NCBI GenBank assembly: GCA_040754075.1
Contig: JBFMDH010000017.1
Span: forward strand, 50,585 to 114,584
Direction of reading: 5' to 3'
DNA: 64,000 bases
DNA from: Acidobacteriota bacterium
GTDB lineage: Bacteria; Acidobacteriota; Blastocatellia; UBA7656
Shown here: positions 2,868 to 57,257 of the stretch, one piece after another
Position numbering within the stretch: position 1 is the first letter of the stretch
Layout: each line of letters opens with the position of its first letter
Notes under the pieces: generated by a model
What the model saw: the letters and a program-made list of their open reading frames with translations, nothing else
What the model was told of the DNA's origin: nothing
Databases searched by the model: none
Made by a program: the position numbers and the translations under genes

Positions 2868-5800
2868 TTAAAACACGATTCGCAGCCCCAGTTGAATCTG
2901 TCTTGCGGAAGTCACGGTCGAGCGAATGCGCCCGAAAGTTGCCAGCGGTTTTTCATTGTCTGCGGCTCCCGCAAAGGCAATCAAACTCGGTGCCCCGAAA
3001 TTCGTCCGATTGAACAGATTGAACGCTTCGACGCGCAATTGAATGTTGCCACTGTCGCCAAGCCATGACACCCGCGTGTTTTTTACGGCTGACAAATCGA
3101 AGGTTCGGAGGTTCGGTCCCGTGAACGTGTTGCGCCCTATATTGCCCAAAGTTCCTGCCGCTTGCAACACGAATGCTGCGGGATTGAAGTATTGATTGGG
3201 ATTGCCGGTCACTGCGGTTTGGTGTGTAAAACCGGGCGCAAGGCTTGGACGGTCAAAGCCGATGCCGGGCGCTTGCGAGGGCGACCATTGCGAACGCGAA
3301 CGATTGCGCGACACAAAAACGGTGAGCGGATTGCCGCTTCGCCTGTTGCTGATGCCGACCAGTTGCCAGCCATCTAAAAGTTTTCCGGTCAAACCTGCTT
3401 TGCCCTTAGCAAACGGCAAAGCCCAGATGAAATTGACTACCCAGTTATGTTTCGCATGAAAATCGGCGAGTCCTTTGTTGTACTGAAAACCGGGAAATTC
3501 CGGGAAAGCCGAAACCGAGCCGGTGGTTGAATCCGAGAAGAAGGTCGAAGCTTGCGTGGTGTCAAGCGTGCGCGAGAAGGTATAAGAAGATTGAAATTCG
3601 AGTCCCGCGCTCCAGCGTTTGCGCACTTCAAAAATCAAAGCGTTATACCACGAATTGCCATCGCTCTTTTTGAGTTCGATAGTTGAAAACGCCGTGTTCG
3701 GTCGCGCTTGTCCAACCGGAAAAAAGAGCGTACCGTCCGGCAGGCGTTGCGGCGTCGGAATATTAGCATCGGTGTTTCTCAGCAAATGAATGCCACGCGC
3801 CCCCGCATAACCAAGGGTCACCACCGTGTTGAACCAGAGTTCGCGTTGCAGATTCAAATTGTAGATGCTCGCATAGGGATTTTTTAAATTGTACTCGACC
3901 GGACGAATCGAATTGCCGATGCCGCGTTCAAACGGCGGATTGGGAAATGTCGGATTGGCAATGATGATGCGCGGCGTTGCCGGTGGATTGGTAACCGTGA
4001 CAATCAGGTTCTGTTGATTGTTGGTGTTGAAATAGATGCCATAGCCGCCGCGTAAACTCATCTTGCCATCGCCGAATAAATCCCAGGCGAATCCAAGTCG
4101 CGGCGAAATATTTTTCCTGGTCGGATTTTTATAAAGCTCGCCGACGGTGGGCGCGGGGTCGCTTAAATTGATGAGCGCGGAATCGCGTCCGTAAAGGTCA
4201 ACCGGCATAGTCGCGGCTTCGTATCGCAAACCGAGATTCAGGGTGAGGCGCGGGCTGATGCGAAAATCGTCCTGCGCAAAAAAACCAAAGAGCGTGAAGC
4301 GCCAGTAACGGTCGAGCGCGCCTTGCGGTGGAAGCCCTAAAAATCGCTGCGGGCGATTTTCCAGAAATGAACGCAAATCCGGGAAGGTATAAATGCCGAG
4401 CGAAAAAGTCGGATTGACCATGTTGTCTTGATAACGCTCGATGAGTTCGCCAAATTTCAAATTGTGTCGTCCGCGCGTGTAAGCAAAGTGGTGTTCAAAA
4501 CTGAAAACATTTTGTACGAGTGTGACATTCACGGATGATTGCGGCCCGAAACGCGGCATCCCGCCAATGTCTATGTCGCCGACGAGTCTGCCCGGAACAA
4601 AGGGTTGCAATGGCGTTGTCGTGTTTGCCTGTACATCTTGCCCGATGTGCGTGCGACTGAAGCCGCCGCGAAAGGTGTGAATCGTAAGCGGTGAAGTCAC
4701 CCAGTCATGTTGCAAGGTAGCGAATTGATTGCGCGACAGGAACGAACGCGGAAATTGCGGAAAGTCGGTCGGCAAAAACTGGTCTGCATCATCGAAGGTG
4801 TAACGAATGAACGAGCGATTGAAATCATTGAAAGCATGATCAACTCTGCTTTGCAAGAAATGCTGGTCAACCGTTTGATTGAAACCGAAATTGAAAGCCG
4901 CCAGCCCGCCGCCTAAATTCGCGCCATTGGCTCGCGGAATTTCGTTGAGGTAGGGCACAACCACCGGATTGATATTGACGGTGATAGTTTGAGCAGGGTT
5001 TGCGGGGTTAGGCAGAATGCCGCGTCGCGCATTGTCATCGGGAACGACGGACGAGATAGTTTTTCCGAGCCGTTCAATTAAAGCTTCATAGCCGAAAAAG
5101 AAGAAGGTTTTATCGCGTTTGATGGGACCACCGAAAATGCCGCCGAATTGATTACGTTTAAAGTCAGGTTTTCGTGTCGGGTCAAAAAAATTGCGCGCAT
5201 CGAAATTATCATTGCGCAGAAATTCAAAAAGCGTCCCGTGAAATTCATTCGTCCCGGCTTTGGAAACCGCATTGATTTGCCCGCCGAAATTGCGCCCGAA
5301 CTCGGCGCTGTAAGAATTCGACTCGACGCGAAATTCCTGAATGGTTTCGACTCCGAGTACGGTGTTGGCGGCGCTGCCGGCAGGACCATTCGTAAAATCA
5401 TTTTGCACGGTGCCATCGATCAAATAAACATTCGAGCGCAAATCCTGCCCGTTGACGCTTGTGCCAAGTCCGTGCGCCACAATCGAGCCGCCATCACGAT
5501 TGGGAAAAGCGATGACGCCGGGTTGCAACAAAGCAAGGTCAGTATAGTTTCTGCCATTCAAGGGCAATTCCCGGATAGCGCGTTCATTGACAAGGTAGCT
5601 GAGTTCCGGCGTTTGCGTATTGACCAAAGGCGTGTTGCTGGTGTCGTCGATAGTAACCTTCTCTTCAACCCCGGAGGGTTCCAACGCCACATTAACCACT
5701 GCCGTTTCACCCAGCGTTAAAACGATGTCTTTGCGCGACCAGGATTTGAATCCGCGCTGTTCGGCGCGAATCTCATAACGCCCGACGCGCATCTCCTGAA

Positions 5801-6029
5801 AGGTGAACCGACCCTCGTCGTCGCTTTGCGTGGCGCGCGTGAAATTGGTGTCAATACTGCGCGCCGTGATCTTTGCGCCTGCAACAACCGCGCCGGTTTG
5901 ATCCGCCACCACCCCTGTAATGGAACTGGTGGTTTGCGCAAAGCCATTCAGGGCGAAGAGATTGCCAACCAGAAAACCGATGATAAAAAAATGTGAAAAA
6001 AGGCGGGAACAAAATTTTGTGTACAACAT
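2868..6029 (-). CDS. TonB-dependent receptor with N-terminal carboxypeptidase-regulatory-like domain
   Basis: 1053 aa with a signal peptide (FALNGFAQT). It has a CarboxypepD_reg-like segment ([22 protein letters not shown]...[25 protein letters not shown]), a long beta-barrel-like body and an aromatic C-terminus (LRIVF). Confidence 0.85.
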
Positions 6030-23256: not shown

Positions 23257-23799
23257 TTAGTTTCGTCGCGCCGGTGTAAAGGTAGCAAGCGGGGGCGCAG
23301 GAATACGCGCCGCTTCTTCGGGAGTTTTTGCGTGAAGCCGGGCAAGTTCTAATTTCAAACTCTGTTCGCCGCGTTCCATTGCCCATTTGTGATTTGCCGC
23401 AAAGAACGGCTTGAGCAAAAACGATAAGCTCCGAAGCAAAGGTTTTTCGGCGCGAATTCGCCAATCATAAGTGACGACCGCAAACTCGCCGTCCTGTTTG
23501 AAAGTCCAAACGCCTAAGCCAATGAAATCGCCCCACGCTTCGAGAGCAAAGCCATGCGGATAATGGGATTCGGTGACGCGAAATTGCCAGCGCAAGGTGT
23601 AAGGCAACCAGCCTTTGGTATAAAGGTCGACGACTTTGCCGACGCCTTCCGCATCACCCGGCTCCAGAATTTTTACATCGAGATACACCGAGGGCCACCA
23701 GCGCGGCAAGTCTTCGGCTTTTCGCAAAATGTCTGCGACTTCGTTAATCGTCCCTCGCACACGCCAATGGGTGATGAATTGATAATCGTTTGATGCCAT
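23257..23799 (-). CDS. SRPBCC (START/polyketide-cyclase-like) family protein
   Basis: Trimmed to ATG 23799 (MASNDYQFITHWRVRGTINEVADIL...). WPSVYLDV is typical of the SRPBCC superfamily. Confidence 0.6.
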   Translation of the reverse strand: MASNDYQFITHWRVRGTINEVADILRKAEDLPRWWPSVYLDVKILEPGDAEGVGKVVDLYTKGWLPYTLRWQFRVTESHYPHGFALEAWGDFIGLGVWTFKQDGEFAVVTYDWRIRAEKPLLRSLSFLLKPFFAANHKWAMERGEQSLKLELARLHAKTPEEAARIPAPPLATFTPARRN

Positions 23800-23902
23800 C
23801 GCTTTTCCTTTCCTCGCGCGATTGTAAACAATTTGACAATCAACTACGAAGCAAACCAAGCTTTCAGATTGCAATTTACAAATTTGTTTTGGAGATTTTT
23901 CG

Positions 23903-28398: not shown

Positions 28399-28989
28399 GT
28401 GAAGCGTTTCAGTCCTGCGTTACCTTATGGTCAGGCTACTGATTTTAACGTCATGCCAGTTGTTGAATCAGCCAAACATTTTTTTGCAGCCAATCAAAAA
28501 GCCTTGCGCTTTCTGTCACTGTTTGCAGCCATCTTTGCCATCAGCTATTTTGTTTTTGGCATCGCCGAAGGGGTACGTAGTTCGCTCATAAAACCCTACA
28601 CGGCGCTGCTTGCAAAAGCCGTAGCGGCGATGGTCAATCTGTTTGGCGCAGGCGCAACCACCGATGGCACGACGATTCAAGCGCAAAATTTTTCGCTTAA
28701 CATTGCGATGGGCTGCGATGGCATCGAAGCGGCTTGTCTGTTTTTAGCCGGGGTTCTCGCCTTTCCGACATCGTGGCAAGCGCGAATGATTGGGCTGGCA
28801 ATCGGCATTCCGTTGATTCAAGTCATCAATGTGTTGCGCCTGATTGCGCTCTATTATGCGGGCATGCATTTCCCATCCGTCGTTGAAGAGATTCACATCT
28901 ATGTCGCTCAAACCGTGGTTATCATCCTCTCAACCGCCATTCTCATCTTCTGGCTCGAACGCATTGCCAGTCGCTACCGGACAGCATAA
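28399..28989 (+). CDS. xrtH: small exosortase-family protein, most consistent with exosortase H (IPTLxxWG-CTERM-specific)
   Basis: 196 aa, polytopic. It has the conserved exosortase Cys motif (AMGCDGIEAA), an Arg motif (INVLRLIALYY) and a downstream His (EEIHIYVAQ). It is adjacent to a PTLSEWG-bearing substrate. Start is GTG 28399 or ATG 28453. Confidence 0.7.
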   Translation: MKRFSPALPYGQATDFNVMPVVESAKHFFAANQKALRFLSLFAAIFAISYFVFGIAEGVRSSLIKPYTALLAKAVAAMVNLFGAGATTDGTTIQAQNFSLNIAMGCDGIEAACLFLAGVLAFPTSWQARMIGLAIGIPLIQVINVLRLIALYYAGMHFPSVVEEIHIYVAQTVVIILSTAILIFWLERIASRYRTA

Positions 28990-29638
28990 ATGGCTGTGGC
29001 GTTTGTTGGCGGCACTCGGATTATATGTGCTGTTACTGCCTCTGTGGTGGTATAGCCTGGGCGCGACTGCAAACCTCAGCGGCACGCTGGCAAATGTCGC
29101 TTATCGGATATTCGATTCACGAACCACCATTCAACCGCAAGGCAGAGAAATCAAGATGACGGTAATGGCGACGCCTGAGAGCGGCTATGGCGGAGCCTCG
29201 CATTCATCAATGATGCGAGTCGATACCGTCAATTACGGCTTGCCGATGCTCATTGCACTCATACTGGTCACGAGCGCGGATTCCTGGCGCGTGAAATTGC
29301 CGGCGCTGGGGCTAGGCGTTTTCATCATGTTTTTACTCACCACCCTGGCAGTGATGTTATCAGCTAAAATAACCGGGCTAGAGTTGGAAGATAAAATCGC
29401 GCAGGCGAATTTCGTGCAAAGCCGTAATCCATCGGGCTTTTTCAATCTGGCGTTTCATGGCTATTCATTTTCGCAACCGGTGGTTGCGGTACTCATCTGG
29501 TTGGGACTTGTGATGCTCGGCTTTTTCAAAGAGAAAATCAAAGCTCAGGTTGAGGCGCATAAAATCACCGTGGCTCGCAATGCGCCTTGTCCCTGTGGCA
29601 GCGGCAGAAAATATAAACGCTGTTGTGGTCGGAGTTAA
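28964..29638 (+). CDS. polytopic membrane protein with a C-terminal SEC-C metal-binding motif; exosortase-associated by position
   Basis: The frame of ORF 28844..29638 overlaps xrtH. I prefer TTG 28964 as the start (PVATGQHKWLWRLLAALGLYVLLLPLWWY), but this is uncertain. The protein ends with CPCGSGRKYKRCCGRS, a SecA-type SEC-C motif. Confidence 0.55.
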   Translation: MPVATGQHKWLWRLLAALGLYVLLLPLWWYSLGATANLSGTLANVAYRIFDSRTTIQPQGREIKMTVMATPESGYGGASHSSMMRVDTVNYGLPMLIALILVTSADSWRVKLPALGLGVFIMFLLTTLAVMLSAKITGLELEDKIAQANFVQSRNPSGFFNLAFHGYSFSQPVVAVLIWLGLVMLGFFKEKIKAQVEAHKITVARNAPCPCGSGRKYKRCCGRS

Positions 29639-35777: not shown

Positions 35778-37676
35778 CTAAGTCGCGCGCGCCGTTTTCG
35801 TTTTTTTGGAAATCGGCTTTTCCGCAGGTTCGGATTTTTTCTTTAAATTCTCTTGTTGCTTTTTGCTTTTTTCTACTTCCTCAAGACATACGGCGGCAAG
35901 CGCGAGAATGCCTAGCGCGCGTTGCGAACGGTCATCAAGACTGCGCGCCCGGTAAAGCCCGCCGTCAAAATCGAGCGGCGCAAGCAGGCGAAAGACTTTT
36001 TCCAAATCGAAACCTTCAACGCCATAACCGTAATAGGAACTGAATTGTTTGCCTTCGATTTTTTGTTGCACATAAGCGGTTGAGAAATTCGGATTGTCGA
36101 GACTGTTGATGGTCTTAACCGCTTCGGTCATCACTTCAAAGGCGCGCAAGGGTTCAATCTTGACGTAAAGAAACACCACGCCGAGCAGGGTTCGCGCTTT
36201 TTCGTTGGTGTTCGGCGCTTTGTAGGCAAGCGTTAAAACCTCATCAAGCGCATCTCTGGCGCGGGGCTTCTCCTCGGCTTTTTTCAGCGCGGCGGCAGCG
36301 ATTTCATACGAGAGATAAGCCCGCAAATCCAACTGCTCGACGTTTTTTGCCAGTTGCGAAGCTAGAAAAAAATCGCCGTCTTTTACGGCTTTTTGGCTGC
36401 GTTTGAAATAGGTGAAGGCGAACAATTGCTGACGCAATTTTTCATCATCAATTTTGCGAATCAGACTGATGATTGTATCGAGGCTGATGTCATTGGAGGC
36501 GTTCAACACAGCAAATGCCATTGCCATTTCACGTTTGTCGGGGTCGGCTTCGCGCTCTGCCTTTTCAGAATATTTCGTAAAAGCATCGCTGTTTGGTTGC
36601 ATCCGCAAAGCGATGTCTTTGTGTTGATTTTGCACCTGCCCTAACGCTTGCCGCATTTCGGGTGTGAGCGCGCCGTTGAGAAAACTTTTCAGTTCAATGA
36701 TGCGATTGACATAAGCGGGTTGATACTCGGCGGCAATGCCTTCGAGATGGTCTAAAGCAAAAATCAATTGCGAAACTTCAGGCAATTTATACGCCCCGCT
36801 TATCGGTTGTTCAGGCAATCTGAGGGTTGCTTCGGCGCGCGCGAGCAAGCTTTCAATAAAGAGTTGCTGCATTGCCGGATTCGCCGTTTCGCTTTTAGGT
36901 TTGCCAAAACCATTCATATAGATTTCTGTGCCGATGTTGCGGTCGCGTAAGAATGGATAGGCAGTTAAAAACAGAAATTCATTGATCGGCGCGTTGGCAT
37001 AATTTCTAACGGCGTCTTGATAAAGCTGGTCTGCCAGCGGTTGATTGACCTCAAGGATGGCATAAAGCGCCGGCCCGATGGATGATGTCAGCGGATAGCT
37101 GAAGGTATTGCGAACAAACGTGGCAGCGGTTTGCGGGTCACTTTTTGCCGTGTCGATTGCCATTTGCAAAAGCTTGTCTTCAAATTTTTGTTGATAACTG
37201 TTGCGGGATTTGGCTTCGCTGGCTGCGGCTTCAGCCTGCTTGCGGGTCTCTTCGGCGACGCGCACGGCAAGTTGTTTCGCCCACGCGCCATCACGTCGGG
37301 CAATCGCCTGCATGACGACGAATCGTTGGTCTGGAAGCAGGGTTAAACTTCTGCCATCACGAATCGACTCGTCGCCTTTGTCTTTGAAATGTTGTTCGGC
37401 AAGGTCAAAAGCTTCGGCGAAAACTTTTCGCGCCTGCGCTTCTCTGGCTTTCCAGAGCAAATCGGCAGCGCGAATCATCACAGCGATTTTTTTATTCACT
37501 GCTTCAATTTTTTTCGCTTCATCGAGTTGCTGGTCAATCAACCAAAAGGCGCGCGATTCATCGCATTTGGCAGGCTGCTCGTCATTTTGCGCTGAGATTT
37601 TGAAAGCCGTGGTTTGAATGAGCAAAACCGAAGCAAAAGCAAAATGCAATAACCGTTTGCTGAAGGAAGGTCGCAT
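35778..37676 (-). CDS. exported alpha-helical hypothetical protein
   Basis: Trimmed to ATG 37676 with GGAGG upstream. Signal peptide MRPSFSKRLLHFAFASVLLIQTTAFKISAQ, then 633 aa of helical, Ala/Lys/Glu-rich sequence. No family recognised. Confidence 0.6.
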   Translation of the reverse strand: MRPSFSKRLLHFAFASVLLIQTTAFKISAQNDEQPAKCDESRAFWLIDQQLDEAKKIEAVNKKIAVMIRAADLLWKAREAQARKVFAEAFDLAEQHFKDKGDESIRDGRSLTLLPDQRFVVMQAIARRDGAWAKQLAVRVAEETRKQAEAAASEAKSRNSYQQKFEDKLLQMAIDTAKSDPQTAATFVRNTFSYPLTSSIGPALYAILEVNQPLADQLYQDAVRNYANAPINEFLFLTAYPFLRDRNIGTEIYMNGFGKPKSETANPAMQQLFIESLLARAEATLRLPEQPISGAYKLPEVSQLIFALDHLEGIAAEYQPAYVNRIIELKSFLNGALTPEMRQALGQVQNQHKDIALRMQPNSDAFTKYSEKAEREADPDKREMAMAFAVLNASNDISLDTIISLIRKIDDEKLRQQLFAFTYFKRSQKAVKDGDFFLASQLAKNVEQLDLRAYLSYEIAAAALKKAEEKPRARDALDEVLTLAYKAPNTNEKARTLLGVVFLYVKIEPLRAFEVMTEAVKTINSLDNPNFSTAYVQQKIEGKQFSSYYGYGVEGFDLEKVFRLLAPLDFDGGLYRARSLDDRSQRALGILALAAVCLEEVEKSKKQQENLKKKSEPAEKPISKKTKTARAT

Positions 37677-37808
37677 AACAAACCTCCGACGATGGTTTGA
37701 TTTGATGATGCAGCGCGAGCCTTTGAGCAAGCTAAACCCAATGCCGTTTCACCAGGTCGCGCCAGCCGTTTGAACGTAGGGCGCTCAAAGTTTACCCGAA
37801 GCTCGCTC

Positions 37809-46602: not shown

Positions 46603-47172
46603 ATGACGAACATATCGGCAAATCAGATCACCGAGTGGCTGGTTGAGTGGGGACAGGGGAATCAACTGGCGCTCGAACAATTGATGCCGCTGGTCTATGA
46701 CGAACTGCGGCGTATGGCGCGTCGTTATATGCGCAATCAACCGTCCGGTCATACCCTGCAAACTACGGACTTGATTCACGAAGCTTATTTGAAGCTCGCA
46801 AGCGGCGCAGATAAAGACTGGCAAAACCGCGCCCATTTTTACGGCGTCGCGGCACAAGCCATGCGCCACATTCTGGTTGATTACGCGCGCTCGCGTCAGA
46901 GCCAAAAACGTGGCGGCGCGGTTGAAAAAGTCACCCTCGACGAAACCGCGCTCGCTTCATTTGACAGAGCCGATGAAGTCGTGGCGCTCAATGATGCGCT
47001 GGAAAAGCTGGCGGTTCTCGATGAACGCAAAGGCAGAGTCGTCGAACTCAAATATTTCGGCGGGTTGACCCACGAAGAAATTGCCACCATCTTGAAAATA
47101 TCTTCCGACACCGTAAAACACGACTGGCGATTTGCCCGCACCTGGCTTTTGCGCGAATTATCCAAGCAGTAA
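46603..47172 (+). CDS. ECF-type sigma-70 family factor of the kinase-associated class (Sigma70_ECF / TIGR02999-like)
   Basis: 189 aa with characteristic motifs: ITEWLVEWGQGNQLALEQLMPLVYDELRRMARRYM, HTLQTTDLIHEAYLKL, KRGG, ELKYFGGLTHEEIA, TVKHDWRFARTWL. Confidence 0.85.
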   Translation: MTNISANQITEWLVEWGQGNQLALEQLMPLVYDELRRMARRYMRNQPSGHTLQTTDLIHEAYLKLASGADKDWQNRAHFYGVAAQAMRHILVDYARSRQSQKRGGAVEKVTLDETALASFDRADEVVALNDALEKLAVLDERKGRVVELKYFGGLTHEEIATILKISSDTVKHDWRFARTWLLRELSKQ

Positions 47173-47202
47173 AAGCATCACCGCCGTACCAAAACATGCT
47201 CA

Positions 47203-50199
47203 ATGAATCTCGAACGATTTAAACAAGTCGAAGCAATCTTTAATGCCGTGATTGCGCTCCCTCCAGCAGAACGCGAGAGCTTTCTTCGGGAAAGTTGCGG
47301 CGGTGATGAAGGGTTGCGCCGCGAAGTTGAATCGCTTTTATCGTTTGACGAGAGCTTCGCAAGCGTGATTGATACGCCGCCGGAATCCCTGGCTGCGGAA
47401 CTGCTTGCCACGCCGCAAAGCGCGCAAATCATCGGCAACACCATCGGGCGTTATCACATCCTCTCGCTTCTCGGCAAAGGTGGAATGGGCGAAGTCTACC
47501 TCGCGGAAGACGGTGAACTGCAACGCAAAGCCGCGCTCAAATTTTTACCCACAGAATTTCTCAACAGCGAAGAACGCTTGCGCCGTTTTGTTCGTGAAGC
47601 GCGCGCCGCGTCGGCACTCAATCACCCGAACATTTTGACGATTTACGAAATCGGCAACGACAAAGGCTTGCGCTTTATCGCCTCGGAACTCGTAAACGGC
47701 ATCACCTTGCGCGAAAAATTGCGAAGCGCAACGATGGTATTTACTGAAGCTTTGGAAATTGCTGCACAAATCGCTTCGGCGCTCGACGCGGCGCATGCAG
47801 GCGGCATCGTTCATCGCGACATCAAACCTGAAAACCTCATGCTCCGCCGCGACGGACTGGTTAAAGTGCTCGACTTCGGTTTAGCGAAACTGACAGAAGC
47901 AAGCCAGGATATAAGCCCGACACACTTAGACCAACACGAGCCGCTCAACTCGAAAATCAATCCGAGCGCGATGATGGGAACACCCAACTATATGTCGCCC
48001 GAACAGGCGCAGGGCTTGGCAGTTGATGCGCGCACTGACATTTTTAGTCTCGGCATCGTGCTTTACGAAATGCTCGCGGGCAAAACACCGTTTGCGGGCG
48101 AAACGGCAAGCGAAGTGATTGCGGCAATTTTGCAAAACCAACCGACACCGCTCGCTTCATTGCTTCCCGAGGTGCCGCGTGAATTGGAACGCATTGTTGA
48201 AAAGATGCTTTGCAAAAATCGCCAAGACCGCTATCAAACGATTAACGAATTACTCATTGATTTGCGCGACCTCAAAAGCGAACTCGATTTCCAGATTAAA
48301 CTCGAACGTTCATCACCGGCTCAGCGAATGGAAGACCCCTTACTCAAAGGGACAAATGCTCACAGCCCTATGCGCGCAAAAGAAAACTTTAATCAGGAAG
48401 CGGCGGTCACCACCATTCGCCGGGCATCGAGAGCGGCATATTTTCTTGAACAGACAAAGCGGCATAAAACGCTTATGGTCATTTGCCTGCTGGTGAGCGC
48501 GATGCTCATCGGTTTTGGAAGTTCGTTCATCAAGCGTTCTTTCAGCAACGGTGAACCGACCCCTGTGCGCGCCTATTCAATGCCGGTGAAACAGACGCAG
48601 GTTACCACGGTGGGCGCGGTTATCGAGGCAAAAATTTCGCCCGACGGTCAATCGGTTGCTTATATTTCTCAAGAAGGCGCGCAATACGCGATTTACTTGT
48701 GGCAAGTAGCCGAAAACCGCACACTGACCATTCTCGCACCGTCAAAGGATGAACTCACCCGTTTGGATTTTGCTCCCGACAGCCAGCACATTTTCTACCG
48801 GCAGATGGATGCAATCGAACGCGGTTTTTTTCACCTTTACAGAGTGCCAACCGCTGGCGGAGCTTCCGAAAAAATCATTGCTCTCGCTGATTCGTTTATC
48901 TCGTTCAGCCCTGATTGGCGGGAAATCGCCTTCAGGAAAGAAGATTTCGACAATCAGAAATCGCAAATCCTCATCGCCAATGCCGATGGCACAGGCGAGC
49001 GGGTGATTGTCGAGCGGAATCGCGCAGAAGGGTTCACTTATGACCCGGCATGGTCGCCCGACGGGAAGACGATTGTCTGTTGGGTGAACGATGCAATCCC
49101 CGATATACAGGAGTTCTCGCTCGTCTCCATCAATGTCGCCGACGGTGCGATGTCTCCTCTCGGTTCAACGAAGTGGCGATGGCCAAATCCCCTCAGATGG
49201 ATGCCGGATGGCAAAGAGTTGCTGGTCAATGCCATAGCCCATGCCGGTGAATGGTTTCAGATATTTCGGGTCGCTTTTCCGAGTGGCGACATCGAGAGAG
49301 TGACCAACGATTTCTATAAGTATGAAGGCGTCAGCCTCACGGCTGATGGGGCTTCGCTGCTTACCGTGCAAGGCAGACAGGAGACCAATATCTATGTTGC
49401 CCCGGCACAGGAGCCGATGAATTTACAGCGACTCACTGAAATGAGTGGGCTATTGTATTACGGCATTGCCTGGACGCCCGACGGCAAAATCGTCTACGGC
49501 TCAAATGCCGGAGGCAGGCGTAATATTTGGATGATGGAAGCCGACGGCAGCCATTTGCAGCAGATCACCAAGGACAGTTTCGCGAACTATGACCCCATCG
49601 TCACGCCCGACGGACGCTACATTGTTTATCAATGCGAGCGCACCGGGAGGTTCAATATCTGGCGAGTCAACATTGACGGCAGTAACCCGATTCAACTCAC
49701 CAACGGCGACATCGAACTGCGTCCCTGCGTCACACCTGACAGCCGGTGGGTGGTTTTTGAAGGTAAAAAAAATGAAGTTGCCTATCTCGGAAAAGTGTCG
49801 ATTGACGGCGGCGAGGTACAGGAGGTTATTCCCCAAACCTGTAATTATGCGAAAGTCTCGCCGGACGGAAAAACCGTCGCTTGCGAGTATTGGCTTGAGA
49901 GTTGGAAACCCAGCCTCTCCATCTTTCCGATAGACGGCGGCAAACCGATCAAAAGCTTTGTGCCAAGGCCCAGTGACTGGCAGTGGTCAACCGATTCGCG
50001 CTCATTAATTTTGGTCGATCACACTCAAGGGTTTTCAAACCTGTTTCGCGCCTCGCTGATAAACAACTCGCGAACACAACTCACCAATTTCAAGAACGAC
50101 CGTATCTTCGCCTATGCGCTTTCGCGCGACGGCAAAAAACTCGCCATGCTTCGCGGGTCGGTATCGAGCGAAGTGATAATCATCAGCAACTTTCACTGA
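47203..50199 (+). CDS. Ser/Thr protein kinase fused to one TM segment and periplasmic TolB-like (PD40/WD40-like) beta-propellers
   Basis: 998 aa. A conserved N-terminal helix region precedes the kinase (FKQVEAIFNAVIALPPAERESFL). Kinase motifs are GKGGMGEVY, HRDIKPEN, DFGLAK and SPEQ. TM segment LMVICLLVSAMLIGFGSSFI, then repeated SPDG/TPDG PD40 motifs. Confidence 0.9.
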   Translation: MNLERFKQVEAIFNAVIALPPAERESFLRESCGGDEGLRREVESLLSFDESFASVIDTPPESLAAELLATPQSAQIIGNTIGRYHILSLLGKGGMGEVYLAEDGELQRKAALKFLPTEFLNSEERLRRFVREARAASALNHPNILTIYEIGNDKGLRFIASELVNGITLREKLRSATMVFTEALEIAAQIASALDAAHAGGIVHRDIKPENLMLRRDGLVKVLDFGLAKLTEASQDISPTHLDQHEPLNSKINPSAMMGTPNYMSPEQAQGLAVDARTDIFSLGIVLYEMLAGKTPFAGETASEVIAAILQNQPTPLASLLPEVPRELERIVEKMLCKNRQDRYQTINELLIDLRDLKSELDFQIKLERSSPAQRMEDPLLKGTNAHSPMRAKENFNQEAAVTTIRRASRAAYFLEQTKRHKTLMVICLLVSAMLIGFGSSFIKRSFSNGEPTPVRAYSMPVKQTQVTTVGAVIEAKISPDGQSVAYISQEGAQYAIYLWQVAENRTLTILAPSKDELTRLDFAPDSQHIFYRQMDAIERGFFHLYRVPTAGGASEKIIALADSFISFSPDWREIAFRKEDFDNQKSQILIANADGTGERVIVERNRAEGFTYDPAWSPDGKTIVCWVNDAIPDIQEFSLVSINVADGAMSPLGSTKWRWPNPLRWMPDGKELLVNAIAHAGEWFQIFRVAFPSGDIERVTNDFYKYEGVSLTADGASLLTVQGRQETNIYVAPAQEPMNLQRLTEMSGLLYYGIAWTPDGKIVYGSNAGGRRNIWMMEADGSHLQQITKDSFANYDPIVTPDGRYIVYQCERTGRFNIWRVNIDGSNPIQLTNGDIELRPCVTPDSRWVVFEGKKNEVAYLGKVSIDGGEVQEVIPQTCNYAKVSPDGKTVACEYWLESWKPSLSIFPIDGGKPIKSFVPRPSDWQWSTDSRSLILVDHTQGFSNLFRASLINNSRTQLTNFKNDRIFAYALSRDGKKLAMLRGSVSSEVIIISNFH

Positions 50200-51771: not shown

Positions 51772-52341
51772 TCAATCACGACCAACGCCCAAGGCATCAG
51801 CAACCCGGTTGATGTAATTAAACCATGAGGCAATCAAGGTGATTTGCAAAATTGCCGTGTCGTCGAACCCGACTTCACGCAATTGCCGGTGATGCTGTTT
51901 ACCGATTTTAGTGGCGTCTTTCGTGAGTTGCACCACATATTCAACCATCACCCGTTCGGCATCAGTAATCGGCGCTGTCCGGTAATCCTTGCGTAACGCT
52001 TCAACCAAATCTTCATCCAACGTCACGCGACGCAGAAACTCTGCGTGGGACTCGATTCAGTAAAAACAACGATTGGTCACCGAAACCATAGTGGCAATCA
52101 TTTCATGCTGGCGGCGCACAAGCGGCAGGTTTGGCGACATCAACGCGCCAAAAGTTGAAAAGGCATGAAAGAGGGCTTCGGGTATCAAGGTGTGCGAAGC
52201 GACGATGCCTGCGGTCTCGCCGTCAAGCGTCGGATGCACCGGTGTTTCATACTCAACCGGATAGAGATGGCGTTGCCCTGTCATTGCCTGACGCAACGTT
52301 TCATCGGCTTCGGAAAGCGGAATAGTCTTAATCCAGGTCAT
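51772..52341 (-). CDS. AhpD/carboxymuconolactone-decarboxylase-family peroxidase-related protein with an in-frame TGA at the CxxC position (probable selenoprotein; otherwise a nonsense pseudogene)
   Basis: ORFs 52057..52341 and 51772..52026 are in the same frame, separated only by TGA (52057-52059). The joined sequence reads [18 protein letters not shown], where this family has CxxC followed by xxxH. A hairpin lies 11 nt downstream. The start overlaps the stop of the upstream permease (TAATG). Confidence 0.65.
52030..52046 (-). promoter_or_regulatory. candidate bacterial SECIS hairpin
   Basis: On the mRNA, ACGCAGA-GUU-UCUGCGU forms a 6-7 bp perfect stem with a G/U-containing apical loop. It begins 11 nt after the in-frame UGA. 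Confidence 0.45.
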
Positions 52342-53705
52342 TAATTTTCCTCCTCTTTTAGACTCACCATCGTAGATACATTTTTGCGAAAGAACAGGAA
52401 ATAGACGGGCGCGCCAAGCGCCACCACCGCTACGCCTGCAAGCGCCTGCACCGGATTATTGGCAGCAAGTAAAACCAGCAGGATAGCGCCGAGCGCGAGA
52501 AAAACAATCGGCGTCAACGGGTAGAGCGGCGTTTGAAAGGTCTTTTCTTTTTGAGGCGTCTTTCGCAATTTAAACACCGCTGCGACGGTCAACAAAATAA
52601 ACCCGACGGTCACAAAAACAAAATAGGCGACGATTTGATTGAACGAGCCGAGTGCTACAAGTAGCGATGCAAGCGCCGCCTGCAAAATGATGGCGCGAAC
52701 CGGCGTATGAAATCGCGGATGCAGTTGCGCCGCCGTTGATAAAAACAGCCCGTCACGCGCCATCGCATAATAGACGCGCGGCGCAGTCATCATCACCGCA
52801 AGCAGACTGCCTGAAACCGAAACAATGACGATGATTGAAAAAATTTGTCCACCGGCACTGCCGAATAAAACCTCTCCCGCCTGCGCCGCAAAGGTTTCGC
52901 CGGAAGTCGCCCGCTCAATCGGCACCAGATAAATGAACACGGCACTCGTCAATAGGTAAACCAGCGTGACGATGCTGACACCATAAGCGAAAGCTCGCGG
53001 CAACACGCGGGCAGGTTCGCGCACTTCGCCCGCAAGTTTGCTGACATCCCACCAACCACCGAATGAAAAGAACGCCGCGACCAAGCCGCCTGCAAGCGCG
53101 CCAATGAGCGGCGTCGAGCCTTCGCGTTGCGCGATGAATGGATTGAAGTTTGACCAGTCGCCCAGACGTTTGCCGAAGCCCCATAAAATGATGAAAGTGA
53201 GTAAACCCAGTTTGAGAAAGGTAAGCCAGCGCATGAGCAAGCCGCTCACTTTTAATCCGAAAATATTGGCAATCGAAAAAGCCACGATGAGGGCAATCGC
53301 TACAAGTTTTGCAGAAAAAGGAGAGAGGTTACTGACATAACCGATATAACCTGCCATGCCGCTGGCGAGCGCAGCGCTCAGCCCCGGGTCCATCACCAGA
53401 AAACATTTCCAACCGTAAACAAACGCAAGTCCCGTCCCGTAAGCTTCGCGCAGGTAAACATAGCCGCCACCTGCCGCAGGAAAACGCGCCGCGAGTTCGC
53501 CGTAACAGAGCGCGCCGCTTAATGCCATGCCGCCCATCACTAACCAGACCACCAGAATCCACATCGGCGACCCCAAAGATTTCGCCATGTCCGCAGGCGT
53601 AAGAAAGATGCCAACTGCAATGACTTCGCCGACAACCAGAGCCATTGCCGATACGAGGCTGAGTTGTCTCTTCAATCCCGCTTGTGTTGATTTGGTTTCA
53701 ATCAC
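52341..53705 (-). CDS. APC-superfamily amino acid/polyamine permease
   Basis: 454 aa with 12 TM segments. N-terminus LKRQLSLVSAMALVVGEVIAVGIFLTPA is typical of the APC family. Confidence 0.8.
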   Translation of the reverse strand: MIETKSTQAGLKRQLSLVSAMALVVGEVIAVGIFLTPADMAKSLGSPMWILVVWLVMGGMALSGALCYGELAARFPAAGGGYVYLREAYGTGLAFVYGWKCFLVMDPGLSAALASGMAGYIGYVSNLSPFSAKLVAIALIVAFSIANIFGLKVSGLLMRWLTFLKLGLLTFIILWGFGKRLGDWSNFNPFIAQREGSTPLIGALAGGLVAAFFSFGGWWDVSKLAGEVREPARVLPRAFAYGVSIVTLVYLLTSAVFIYLVPIERATSGETFAAQAGEVLFGSAGGQIFSIIVIVSVSGSLLAVMMTAPRVYYAMARDGLFLSTAAQLHPRFHTPVRAIILQAALASLLVALGSFNQIVAYFVFVTVGFILLTVAAVFKLRKTPQKEKTFQTPLYPLTPIVFLALGAILLVLLAANNPVQALAGVAVVALGAPVYFLFFRKNVSTMVSLKEEEN

Positions 53706-53871: not shown

Positions 53872-56844
53872 TCAAAACGAAAATCGCGCTGCCAATTGAA
53901 AAGCCCGCGCGCCACCCGAACCGAATACGCCGCCCGCCGTGGTCACAGCGCGCCCGAAATTCGACGACCGCAAAAATCCGGGACTTGCGGGATTATCGCT
54001 GTCGCGCGTCAAGGTATTCGCAAATCCCGAATAATTGACATTCGATACGCCCAAAATATTCGTGACGTTGAACAGATTGAAAACTTCAATCATCGGTTCA
54101 AAGCGAACACGCTCACCCAAGCGAAAGGCTTTTGTCAGTCGCACGTCAAACGAATTGAAACTATCGTTGAATCGCGCATCGTCACTTACGAACGGCAACG
54201 GCTGTCCGTTGACGCCCCCGCCTGCATTCACTTGGGCGATGAAATCATTCAACTCTCTGCCCGTGTGAAACAGACGACCTCCGGCATTGCGTTGCAGAAG
54301 CGGAAGGCGCGAGCTGCCATCGGGCAACAGAATATCCATCGGCACGCCCGAAGCCACCGTCCAAATCGGTGAAAGCTGCAATCCTAAAGGCAATCCGAAC
54401 ACGCCCGAAAAGGTGAAGCGATGGCGCTGGTCATTGGGCGTCGGCGCATATTCCAATCCTAAATTCTGCGGATAGAGCGGGCCATTGGCGAAGGGAATCT
54501 GATCGTCATTGGCGTAATTGAAGGCTTTCGACAAAGTGTAAGAAGCGCGGAATTGATAATGATGCGAAAAGCCTTTTTCAAAACTGAGCAGCAAGCCGTC
54601 GTATTTTGTTTTAACGCTTGATTCGAGATTGACCACTCTATCGGGACCGCCAACCACGGGATTGAAAACCGTACCGATGGCGCGACCGATGATGAAGTGT
54701 GTGCCAAAGTTATGCAGGTAATCGGCGCGCACCGCGAAATCGCTGCCCAACTGGCGCTCAATGCCGATGTTGCTCTGTTGCACCATCGGGTTTTGCAAGC
54801 GGTTATCGATAATGTTAATGCCGCCTGCGCCTGCGCCCGGCAGAATAAATCCGGTAAACGGGTTTTGAATATTGGGCGCGATGGGCGGAAAACGCCCGGT
54901 GTTGGGGTCGATGAAAAAGACATTGCCGGCGCGAACTTCAATGGCGAGCGCGCGCCCGTCAAGCCCGCGTTCAAGCGATTGAATCTCAATGGTCACGCGG
55001 TCGTAATAGATGCCATAGCCGCCGTGAATGCTGGTGCGTCCATCCCTGGTTGACCAATTAAAACCAACACGCGGCGCAAAATTATTTTTGTCGCGTTCAC
55101 GCTTGCCGCTTAAAAACGGAAGTATGAGGGGATTGAGTTCATCCACGCGGCTGACGTTTTTCACATCGGTGTCGAGTTCATAACGCAAGCCGAGATTCAA
55201 GGTGAATTGCGGATGGATGTGCCAGTTGTCCTGCACGAATGCCGCGAAATAGTTGTTATCGCTTTCGGGAAGCACCAACGCGCGCTCGGGCGTTGCGCTG
55301 CGCAGCGTCACCGCAAAGAGCAAATCGTTATCATCCACACGCCCATCGCCGTTGTGGTCGAAATCGGGGAAATCCTGAACAAATTCGATGCGCCCCTGTT
55401 GAAAAACGCCGAGGTCGAAATCCGCATCAATGCGTTGAAATTCGCCGCCGATATGCAAGGTGTGCGCGCCTTTGACAATGGAAAAAGTATCGGCAAATTG
55501 CAAACGATTCATGCGGGTTTGTTGGGGCACACGAAACGATGAACCGTCCTGCAAACTCGGAAAAGTAAATTGCGGGCTGACGGCGACCGGCAGAGTCTTG
55601 TTGATGAAATTGGTATTGCTGAACCGGAAATTATTTAAAAGCGGCGGCGAAATAATTTTCTCCCAACTGGTCACGAACGATTGATAATGATTGCTGCTTG
55701 CCTGTCTTTGCGAGGCGCTGCCGATGGCGCGAATCAAGGTGCTCGCGGTGGTGTCTTCGGCGCGTTCGAGTGAATAACGAAAGCCCAATCGGTCACTGTT
55801 GGAAACTGCCCAGTCGCCGCGCGCGGTTGCCAGCAAATCATTGAGCGGCGCGTCTGCAAAATTGCGCCTGATGGTGCGGGTTGCGGTGTCGCGTTCGCCG
55901 ACCAGTACCGCGCCGTCCTGATTGCGATATTCATAAGCGCCGAACCAGAAAAGTTTATCTTTAATGATTGCGCCGCCCGCTGCCGCTGCGAATTGTTCGC
56001 GGTCAAACGGCGGGTCGGGGTTGCTGCGGTCAAAAGTCGCGGGCAAACCTTGCAGATTGCGGTCACGAAAGAAGAATGATGCCGAGCCATGAAAATCGTT
56101 CTCCCCGCCTTTGGTCACGATGTTGATGATGGATGAACCCGAACGACCGAGTTCCGCTGAAAAGCGATTGGTGGCGATTTGAAATTCCTGCACGGCTTCC
56201 TGCGAGATGTTGATGAGCGTGCCGCCGACCACATCATCATTGTTGTCCGCGCCATCAACCGTGACGTTGCCGCCGCGACCGAGTTGCCCTGCCGATGAAA
56301 TCGACACCGTGTTGGTTTTCGTCGGGTCGAAATTGGGCGCGGGCGAATTGCCGGGAATCAGCAATGCCAGTTCGAGAAAGTTACGACCATTGAGCGGCAG
56401 ATTTTCAATCACCCGTTTACCGATGACGCCATCAACGACAGATGTAGTTCTATCAATTTCAATGACTGGGGAAGCAATCAAGGTTAAAGGGTCAGCAACA
56501 ACTTCTCCGACCGCAAGTGTGGTATCCAGCGAAACACTTTGTCCGACTTGAACCATCACCGCCTCATACGTTTTTGTCCGAAAATTTGGCGATTGAATGG
56601 TTACTTCGTAATCGCCCGGCGGCACATTGCTGATGGTGAAAAGTCCTTCGTCATTGGTTTTCGTTTCGCGCTTCAAGCCTGTGGCTTTTTGGGTAGCGGT
56701 AATTTGCGCGTCAACGATGACCGCGCCTTGCGGGTCAAGGACGCGACCGCTGAGCGTAGCGGTTGCGGCTTGTTGTGCGAAGGTGGTGGCGGCAAGCAAA
56801 CAGATAAACAGCAAACGGACAATCGCCGCTTGTACTTTTTTCAT
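53872..56844 (-). CDS. TonB-dependent receptor with N-terminal carboxypeptidase-regulatory-like domain
   Basis: Trimmed to ATG 56844 with GGAGAA upstream. Signal peptide ...AATTFAQQ, CarboxypepD_reg-like segment (LSGRVLDPQGAVIVDAQITATQ...NDEGLFTISNVPPGDYEV), and C-terminus AARFSF. Confidence 0.85.
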   Translation of the reverse strand: MKKVQAAIVRLLFICLLAATTFAQQAATATLSGRVLDPQGAVIVDAQITATQKATGLKRETKTNDEGLFTISNVPPGDYEVTIQSPNFRTKTYEAVMVQVGQSVSLDTTLAVGEVVADPLTLIASPVIEIDRTTSVVDGVIGKRVIENLPLNGRNFLELALLIPGNSPAPNFDPTKTNTVSISSAGQLGRGGNVTVDGADNNDDVVGGTLINISQEAVQEFQIATNRFSAELGRSGSSIINIVTKGGENDFHGSASFFFRDRNLQGLPATFDRSNPDPPFDREQFAAAAGGAIIKDKLFWFGAYEYRNQDGAVLVGERDTATRTIRRNFADAPLNDLLATARGDWAVSNSDRLGFRYSLERAEDTTASTLIRAIGSASQRQASSNHYQSFVTSWEKIISPPLLNNFRFSNTNFINKTLPVAVSPQFTFPSLQDGSSFRVPQQTRMNRLQFADTFSIVKGAHTLHIGGEFQRIDADFDLGVFQQGRIEFVQDFPDFDHNGDGRVDDNDLLFAVTLRSATPERALVLPESDNNYFAAFVQDNWHIHPQFTLNLGLRYELDTDVKNVSRVDELNPLILPFLSGKRERDKNNFAPRVGFNWSTRDGRTSIHGGYGIYYDRVTIEIQSLERGLDGRALAIEVRAGNVFFIDPNTGRFPPIAPNIQNPFTGFILPGAGAGGINIIDNRLQNPMVQQSNIGIERQLGSDFAVRADYLHNFGTHFIIGRAIGTVFNPVVGGPDRVVNLESSVKTKYDGLLLSFEKGFSHHYQFRASYTLSKAFNYANDDQIPFANGPLYPQNLGLEYAPTPNDQRHRFTFSGVFGLPLGLQLSPIWTVASGVPMDILLPDGSSRLPLLQRNAGGRLFHTGRELNDFIAQVNAGGGVNGQPLPFVSDDARFNDSFNSFDVRLTKAFRLGERVRFEPMIEVFNLFNVTNILGVSNVNYSGFANTLTRDSDNPASPGFLRSSNFGRAVTTAGGVFGSGGARAFQLAARFSF

Positions 56845-57257
56845 GTGAACTTTCTCCTGTTTAGAAATTCCGGCGTCTGGGTCACAAATTCGGCTCTTTA
56901 CCAATAGACCTTATGCTTATTCAATTTCAGCAATTCGTCCTGAATGAAACAACTCAACTCAGGGGTTACAGCGTGAAGGATTTCTATAATAAAAATGCCC
57001 GCGCAAATCTCATTCGAGAGGTTTACAGCGGGCGAATATAAAATCGGTTTTATAAAACGATTTCGCTTGTAATTATGGAGATAAAAGTTTGAAGCTGGAA
57101 ATTCGCCCACTCAACTCGCGTGGCAGCATATCTGAATCGCTACAGTCTGTCATTAAACCAAAGTTCAAGCGCGCATTATATCGAATGTTATAGTTCGTCT
57201 TGCCTTGCGCATTTTGCTATGATGCAAGCCCGAAAAAACTGCCACGAAGGAGCAACT

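Follow-up and report, generated by a model that had tools for sequence, protein, structure and literature searches.

AhpD-like proteins with a CxxU redox motif (COG2128) were introduced as a new selenoprotein family from 27 sequences in the Sargasso Sea data (PMC1088965), and under the name 'AhpD-like 1' (CxxU) they contributed 299 genes to the GOS data, which placed them among the most abundant families (PMC2398784). An AhpD-like selenoprotein family also appears in a 2022 review (PMC9312934), and the entry 'AhpD-like protein, TIGR01926, CxxU' is found in a review of 2026 (PMC13188914). The proton relay of AhpD itself consists in M. tuberculosis of Glu118/Cys130/His132/Cys133/His137, and that of the related PA0269 of Glu36/Cys48/Tyr50/Cys51/His55 (PMC3141380). 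The gene that we describe here, from an Acidobacteriota bacterium, is almost certainly a further member of this selenoprotein family, known since 2005. As far as can be judged from sequence, it carries every feature by which AhpD-like CxxU proteins and bacterial SECIS elements are recognized, and in kind it adds nothing new to the biology, since family, motif and SECIS mechanism had all been established before. An earlier note on this DNA had proposed a probable selenocysteine in an AhpD-family gene and had referred to AhpD-like proteins as a known selenoprotein family, a statement that the literature documents well (PMC1088965, PMC2398784, PMC13188914). Nothing essential separates the present gene from that family: it scores above the family HMM cut-off, has Sec at the second Cys position, is followed by a hairpin with a loop G and has abundant Cys homologues. 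The members treated here stem from soil Acidobacteriota and Gemmatimonadota instead of marine samples; the 17-nt hairpin of this subfamily hardly changes from one phylum to the next, and roughly one locus in three has the gene coupled to an APC permease.

The gene lies on the minus strand of the window, by which we mean the whole 64,000-nt stretch of DNA that was analysed, and runs complete from 52341 to 51772, with 189 codons including the predicted Sec95. It begins with ATG (52341-52339), preceded at a distance of 7 nt by the Shine-Dalgarno sequence AGGAGG (52349..52354, minus strand) within the 3' end of the permease gene, and it ends with TGA (51774-51772) followed by TAA. Translation of this frame meets a single break, the TGA at 52059-52057, and the local peptide reads VSVTNRC92-F-Y-[TGA95]-I-E-S-H99-AEFLRR. 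The ORF list gives two halves on the minus strand, 52057..52341 (94 aa) and 51772..52026 (84 aa, starting at a GTG inside the gene). The earlier note had joined them as one gene split by TGA, and that reading holds: both halves are in the same frame and only the TGA separates them. Since TGA is the terminator of 7 of the 35 Pfam-supported ORFs in the window, the selenoprotein gene's own end among them, the genetic code is standard, and genome-wide reassignment of TGA (code 4 or 25) is out. When the window was scanned for other ORFs split by TGA, no second credible selenoprotein candidate was found.

With the TGA read as Cys, profile searches matched the Pfam CMD domain PF02627 (E = 6.5e-10, 39.3 bits against a cut-off of 23) and the NCBIfam model TIGR01926, 'peroxidase-related enzyme' (110.7 bits over residues 54-186; cut-off, 81.8). 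The attribution to the AhpD family made in the earlier note therefore stands in part: TIGR01926 and CMD are passed, and the protein is not an orthologue of AhpD proper, whose subfamily model (TIGR00777 'ahpD') it misses with 22.8 bits against 191.95. Two further AhpD/CMD-domain selenoprotein families, NF041238 (AhpD_rel_CFYUT) and NF053654 (YciW-related (seleno)protein), are sister families to which the window gene does not belong, its scores being far under their cut-offs (60.6 vs. 175 and 35.8 vs. 310, respectively). The NF041238 proteins are about 357 aa long with an additional N-terminal region, and their motif is C-F-Y-U-T where the present one is C-F-Y-U-I. Solved relatives are 2pfx (E = 1.7e-20), 3c1l, 2oyo, 6k40 and 2prr. 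Homology to the first four predicts an all-helical protein with the CMD fold, a fold that, in terms of sequence matches to the PDB, is already fixed.

The residues around the TGA, E80-x11-C92-F-Y94-[TGA]95-I-E-S-H99, follow the proton-relay motif E-x11-C-x-(H/Y)-C-x3-H. Glu80 (codon 52102..52104, minus strand), the Glu of the AhpD relay, is invariant in both alignments inspected. Cys92 (52066..52068, minus strand) is the first, resolving Cys of CxxU, and the in-frame UGA of codon 95 (52057..52059, minus strand), the predicted selenocysteine, stands second in the redox motif C92-x-x-U95. The relay His, His99 (52045..52047, minus strand), follows four residues past Sec, and the last two bases of its codon begin the downstream hairpin. 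In the PDB relatives 2pfx, 3c1l and 2oyo the second CxxC Cys faces the TGA column. The spacing E-x11-C-x-Y-[C/U]-x3-H is identical to that of PA0269, and Glu80 and Cys92 are spaced as Glu118 and Cys130 are in M. tuberculosis AhpD, which by alignment makes the predicted Sec95 the equivalent of Cys133 in that protein and of Cys51 in PA0269. The present gene differs from AhpD and PA0269 in having no adjacent ahpC and Sec in place of the second Cys, besides its distance from the TIGR00777 model.

A search of a 5.8-billion-protein catalogue returned 1207 matches, and the best 120 of these, all full length, were inspected. At the column of the TGA, 41 of these 120 carry Cys, 76 are given as 'W' and one as 'L'. 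Together with the three structures, the 41 Cys homologues bear out the earlier note's placement of the TGA at the second catalytic Cys of CxxC, followed by a conserved His; that note had taken a misaligned redox Cys to be a sign against its proposal, and the homologue alignment puts the Cys/Sec column and the TGA column in one place. Among the Cys-type proteins there are some with altered sites: in P0091, P0093, P0098 and P0103 (N-C-T-F-Y-C) the first Cys has moved by one position, giving CxxxC, and P0108 (N-K-T-F-Y-C) is without the first Cys. P0060 (C-R-Y-S-I-A-S-N) has Ser for Sec/Cys as well as a His to Asn change, and its site appears degenerate.

Turning to the DNA, we scanned one genome for each GTDB species and obtained 80 loci with 72-83% protein identity to the window gene, the best of them in a Blastocatellia MAG (83%); all 80 have TGA at codon 95. 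Judged by its best matches and its gene content, the window most likely stems from an acidobacterium in the class Blastocatellia. Their sources are Blastocatellia, Pyrinomonadaceae, Terriglobia/Acidobacteriaceae, Vicinamibacterales, Gemmatimonadota, Candidatus Cybelea and a few others. A metagenome scan (L089-L168) was seeded with a Cys-type profile and intended to gather Cys-form controls; despite this seed, 77 of its 80 loci, mostly on soil metagenome contigs, proved to have TGA at codon 95. Over both scans the TGA is kept in about 157-159 of 160 homologous genes outside the Cys forms, and, going by the loci retrieved, the Sec form of this subfamily seems to be far commoner in soils than the Cys form. 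In a codon alignment of the window gene with 83 comparison genes (the 80 genome loci and L001-L003), to which it is 67-78% identical in nucleotides, codons 1-94 have a dN/dS of 0.085 and codons 96-189 one of 0.090 against the relatives, dS being saturated. This equality, at about 0.09 on either side of the TGA, indicates that the C-terminal half is translated and constrained like the N-terminal half.

The predicted SECIS (52030..52046, minus strand) is the hairpin ACGCAGA-GUU-UCUGCGU, with a perfectly paired 7-bp stem and a GUU triloop, embedded in codons H99-A-E-F-L-R104. A spacer of 10 nt, AUCGAGUCCC, separates it from the UGA, and 17 nt lie between the UGA and the apical loop; the 'eleven nt after the UGA' of the earlier note is thus true in the sense that the hairpin begins at the 11th nucleotide. 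In E. coli fdhF the minimal SECIS comprises an upper stem-loop of 17 nt located 11 nt past the UGA, and its loop G23/U24 contacts SelB. The two elements have in common their length of 17 nt, a spacing of 10 vs. 11 nt, a G-U that opens the loop and a position inside the coding sequence, and they differ in that the present one has a GUU triloop where fdhF has GGUC, no bulged U, and no lower stem that is conserved in the alignment. Bacterial SECIS elements are expected to have 16-37 nt between the UGA and the apical loop (PMC10778597) and a small apical loop with a conserved G (PMC1088965). The geometry found here, with 17 nt to a triloop that starts with G, falls within this rule, in agreement with the earlier note, which had considered the spacing and the G/U-containing loop to fit. 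In isolation the 17-nt hairpin folds with -8.2 kcal/mol (z = -4.5), and one in 200 shuffles is equally stable; folding of longer segments around it revealed no unusual stability. RNAfold proposed an extended lower stem (pairs 11-16 with 38-43), which we rejected because two of the five pairs are unpaired in >60% of sequences. Searches against Rfam, of the window at gathering thresholds and of 51950-52110 at permissive ones, returned only a tRNA-Met and noise, and Rfam appears to be without a model for SECIS elements of this type.

The evidence that this hairpin acts at the RNA level comes from synonymous sites. Over the 84 aligned genes, mean synonymous entropy is 1.37 bits across 159 degenerate codon columns, and values below 0.35 bits are confined to six codons in a row, the hairpin codons H99-R104, whose entropy is about 0. 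These codons are CAC in 84/84 genes, GCA in 84/84, GAG in 84/84, TTT in 83/84, CTG in 84/84 and CGT in 79/84. They are mostly non-preferred elsewhere in the gene: outside the hairpin, the same genes use GCA for 11.7% of Ala, CGT for 10.7% of Arg and TTT for 32.9% of Phe codons, and the joint probability of the hairpin set is about 5e-4 per sequence. Pairing in the 7-bp stem reaches 99.2% over 140 distinct 72-nt segments. The few substitutions either convert A-U to G-U (GCA to GCG, in two sequences) or abolish the outermost or the loop-closing pair, and the loop G is invariant in all 140 distinct sequences, GAG never being replaced by GAA. Since the stem is practically invariant, no compensatory covariation was found in it across the 140 sequences, and the case for a SECIS therefore rests on the synonymous-site constraint. 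This constraint follows the TGA. The exact 18-nt block CAC GCA GAG TTT CTG CGT occurs in 73 of the 77 metagenome TGA loci vs. none of six Cys-form genes, which use GCC/GCG, TTC/TTT and CGC/CGG/AGG and in which 3-6 of the 7 stem positions are pairable; in Cys-form proteins the hairpin Ala is replaced by V, L, T or K. These comparisons support the view that the hairpin behaves as a SECIS, under an RNA-level constraint that goes beyond coding and is specific to the TGA forms. Chance is excluded, by the comparative data rather than by any single sequence, given that the TGA and the hairpin are kept together in about 160 diverged homologues.

We consider it very likely that UGA95 is recoded by way of this hairpin and that selenocysteine is the residue inserted, a reading that brings together the family match, the position of the TGA at the second-Cys column, its conservation, and a hairpin that is invariant in the TGA forms only, all of which favor the selenocysteine suggested in the earlier note. 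Under this proposal, when a ribosome arrives at the UGA, the hairpin of 17 nt that follows after 10 nt would act as a bacterial SECIS and recruit SelB-GTP-Sec-tRNA(Sec), so that Sec would be inserted and termination avoided, as expected from the anatomy of the gene and from established bacterial Sec decoding. The product would be a functional AhpD-like thiol/selenol oxidoreductase of ~21 kDa in the TIGR01926 / COG2128 'peroxidase-related enzyme' family, and its active site, Glu80...Cys92-Phe-Tyr94-Sec95...His99, would reproduce the AhpD proton-relay constellation with Sec95 standing for the second Cys. Because it replaces the second Cys of CxxC in an AhpD-type relay, Sec95 would be expected to be the attacking nucleophile, with Cys92 resolving and a selenenyl-sulfide as the intermediate. 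The machinery for such decoding was looked for in the vicinity. With E. coli SelA, SelB and SelD as tblastn queries, neither the window nor 845 kb of related loci gave a hit to selA, selB or selD, and ARAGORN found no tRNA-Sec in either, the one tRNA of the window being tRNA-Met; the sel genes, selC included, are usually unlinked to selenoprotein genes. Sec-machinery genes are normally located elsewhere in the genome. Sec users are known among the Acidobacteriota (PMC1794560, PMC12013277).

The comparative data also bear on whether the gene is read through at all. A single mutation separates TGA from TGC or TGT, and one might regard the gene as a Cys-type gene recently inactivated by a nonsense mutation. 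Yet the same codon is TGA in about 157-159 independent homologues at ~70% nucleotide identity, purifying selection acts equally on the two intact halves (dN/dS ~0.09), and the hairpin, specific to the TGA forms, does not vary at synonymous sites, so that for the window gene a pseudogene is very improbable and for the family this reading is, on these comparisons, effectively refuted. Even less probable is that the locus consists of two small genes, or of one deliberately ending in a 94-aa product, with the hairpin serving as a DNA or RNA regulatory palindrome or attenuator rather than as a SECIS. It is true that a GTG start 30 nt past the TGA would give the 84-aa ORF at 51772..52026, and that termination at the UGA probably competes with Sec insertion, making some truncated product likely. 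Against this, however, the TGA falls within the CMD/AhpD domain as well as within the TIGR01926 match (residues 54-186) and the stretch aligned to PDB entries, relay residues lie on both sides of it, and the codons between TGA and GTG are conserved as protein; the substitution that remains compatible with G-U pairing agrees with pairing in the sense-strand RNA. TGA conservation among homologues and the dN/dS values together exclude both the pseudogene and the two-gene readings.

The sequence data show recoding rather than the identity of the residue, and this leaves room for a SECIS-dependent insertion of something other than Sec, for example Cys, carried by a tRNA(Cys) that resembles tRNA(Sec), has the anticodon UCA and is served by a second SelB. 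A system of this kind (selC*/selB*/cysS*) has been proposed in some Deltaproteobacteria, and unusual 'allo-tRNAs' that resemble tRNA(Sec) are reported in Acidobacteria (PMC5389517). In the same work, however, selC*/selB* are reported from Firmicutes, Thermodesulfobacteria, Nitrospirae and Proteobacteria and not from Acidobacteria (PMC5389517). Moreover, insertion of Cys through UGA and a SECIS would have no obvious advantage over TGC or TGT, the genuine Cys forms of this family encode Cys with TGC, and CxxU AhpD-like proteins are already accepted as selenoproteins. We therefore regard insertion of another residue as quite unlikely, if somewhat less so than a pseudogene or a pair of small genes, and we retain Sec insertion at UGA95 as the reading of choice.

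The 'W' found at the TGA column in catalogue proteins deserves comment. It is seen in P0001, P0034, P0080 and about 70 other entries, drawn from the JGI, ENA and Logan catalogues. In all four 'W' loci that were checked (L003:253-819, L004:270-836, L171:82-648 and L172:272-856) the codon in the DNA is TGA, and the deposited proteins disagree with the code-11 translation. Gene callers evidently applied a code in which TGA is Trp to short contigs and so wrote Trp at the active site, and, as judged from these four loci read at the DNA level, the 'W' is mostly an artefact. The consequence for annotation is that standard gene callers split the gene in two or, on short metagenomic contigs, insert Trp, and public protein catalogues thus systematically misrepresent what seems to be a very common soil selenoprotein.

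True sense codons at the Sec position do occur: TGG in L001:676-1245, an ENA contig, and TTA in L002:2319-2885 and L088:1103-1669. Each is one mutation from TGA, and the SECIS hairpin is intact in all three genes. The two TTA genes are 81% identical in nucleotides, and neither resembles the other more than it resembles TGA forms. Going by these sequences, the codons could be independent inactivating mutations, or they could be candidates for the natural recoding of sense codons to Sec, a phenomenon that has been described (PMC10778597, citing Mukai 2016). We note that UUA and UGG in these genes might indeed be decoded as Sec, a reading that we hold to be less likely than that of a permease-selenoprotein module, discussed below. 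In our view the Trp annotation artefact, the near-universal 17-nt SECIS of the soil clade and these rare UUA/UGG variants with their hairpin are the most useful by-products of the analysis, and the nearly invariant SECIS might offer a simple means of probing soil metagenomes for the use of Sec.

Directly upstream of the selenoprotein gene, on the same strand, lies a gene for an APC-superfamily amino-acid permease of 454 aa (52341..53705, minus strand), closest to the L-type amino acid transporter subfamily and, in the profile search, under every equivalog cut-off. Its TAA (52343-52341) shares one base with the ATG of the selenoprotein gene (52341-52339), as the earlier note had described (TAATG), and this overlap makes co-transcription and translational coupling of the two genes probable. 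The same note had called the pairing unusual, an assessment that we cannot sustain: of 83 related loci, 24 (about a third) likewise have a permease gene immediately 5' and in the same orientation, often overlapping or within about 20 nt, and the Cys-form locus L085 has the same arrangement with a 4-nt overlap. The permease-paired loci belong mostly to Pyrinomonadaceae and Blastocatellia, with some in Gemmatimonadota and Vicinamibacterales, and in Terriglobia-type loci the upstream neighbor is a divergent citrate synthase, not a permease (Pfam annotation for L001). From gene order, then, the pairing is best described as a recurrent operon of one clade. Downstream the neighbor is a convergent GH30 glycosidase; with the permease on one side and this hydrolase on the other, the gene does not show the association with ahpC, and no AhpC-TSA domain was found among the window's 38 ORFs of at least 180 aa, the size to which that scan was confined.

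The coupling to a permease hints, speculatively, at the reduction of an imported or transport-related oxidised compound. One could go further and posit that the permease and the CxxU selenoprotein form a dedicated two-gene module in which the enzyme reduces the cargo of the permease or a by-product of its transport; we think this unlikely, if worth stating. The substrate of such a module may be an oxidised sulfur or selenium amino acid, e.g., cystine, selenocystine or a sulfoxide. E. coli YciW (COG2128) has been tied to cysteine tolerance, with its biochemistry unknown (PMC10821248), and a two-gene module, if it were true, would echo this unexplained link between YciW and cysteine metabolism, as a lead only.

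Several other features of the window may be recorded. On the same strand and 166 nt upstream of the permease-selenoprotein pair, 53872-56904 (minus strand) encodes a CarboxypepD_reg domain with an OMP beta-barrel, TonB-dependent-like, and a second large outer-membrane protein of this CarboxypepD_reg and OMP beta-barrel type, also TonB-dependent-like, is encoded at 2868-6029 (minus strand). A 650-aa ORF at 35778-37730 and a 205-aa ORF at 23257-23874, both on the minus strand, have no Pfam match at E <= 1e-5. The ORF at 28399-28989 (plus strand) matches only the C-terminal part of exosortase EpsH and overlaps by 146 nt, in another frame, the ORF at 28844-29638 (plus strand), which ends in a SEC-C motif; the overlap could be a frameshift, an artefact of start-codon choice in the ORF list, or real. 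Finally, at 46603-50199 (plus strand) an ECF sigma factor (PF07638) is followed after 30 nt by a 998-aa Ser/Thr kinase with PD40/WD40-like beta-propeller repeats, a pairing of sigma factor and kinase-propeller protein that is typical of the Acidobacteriota.
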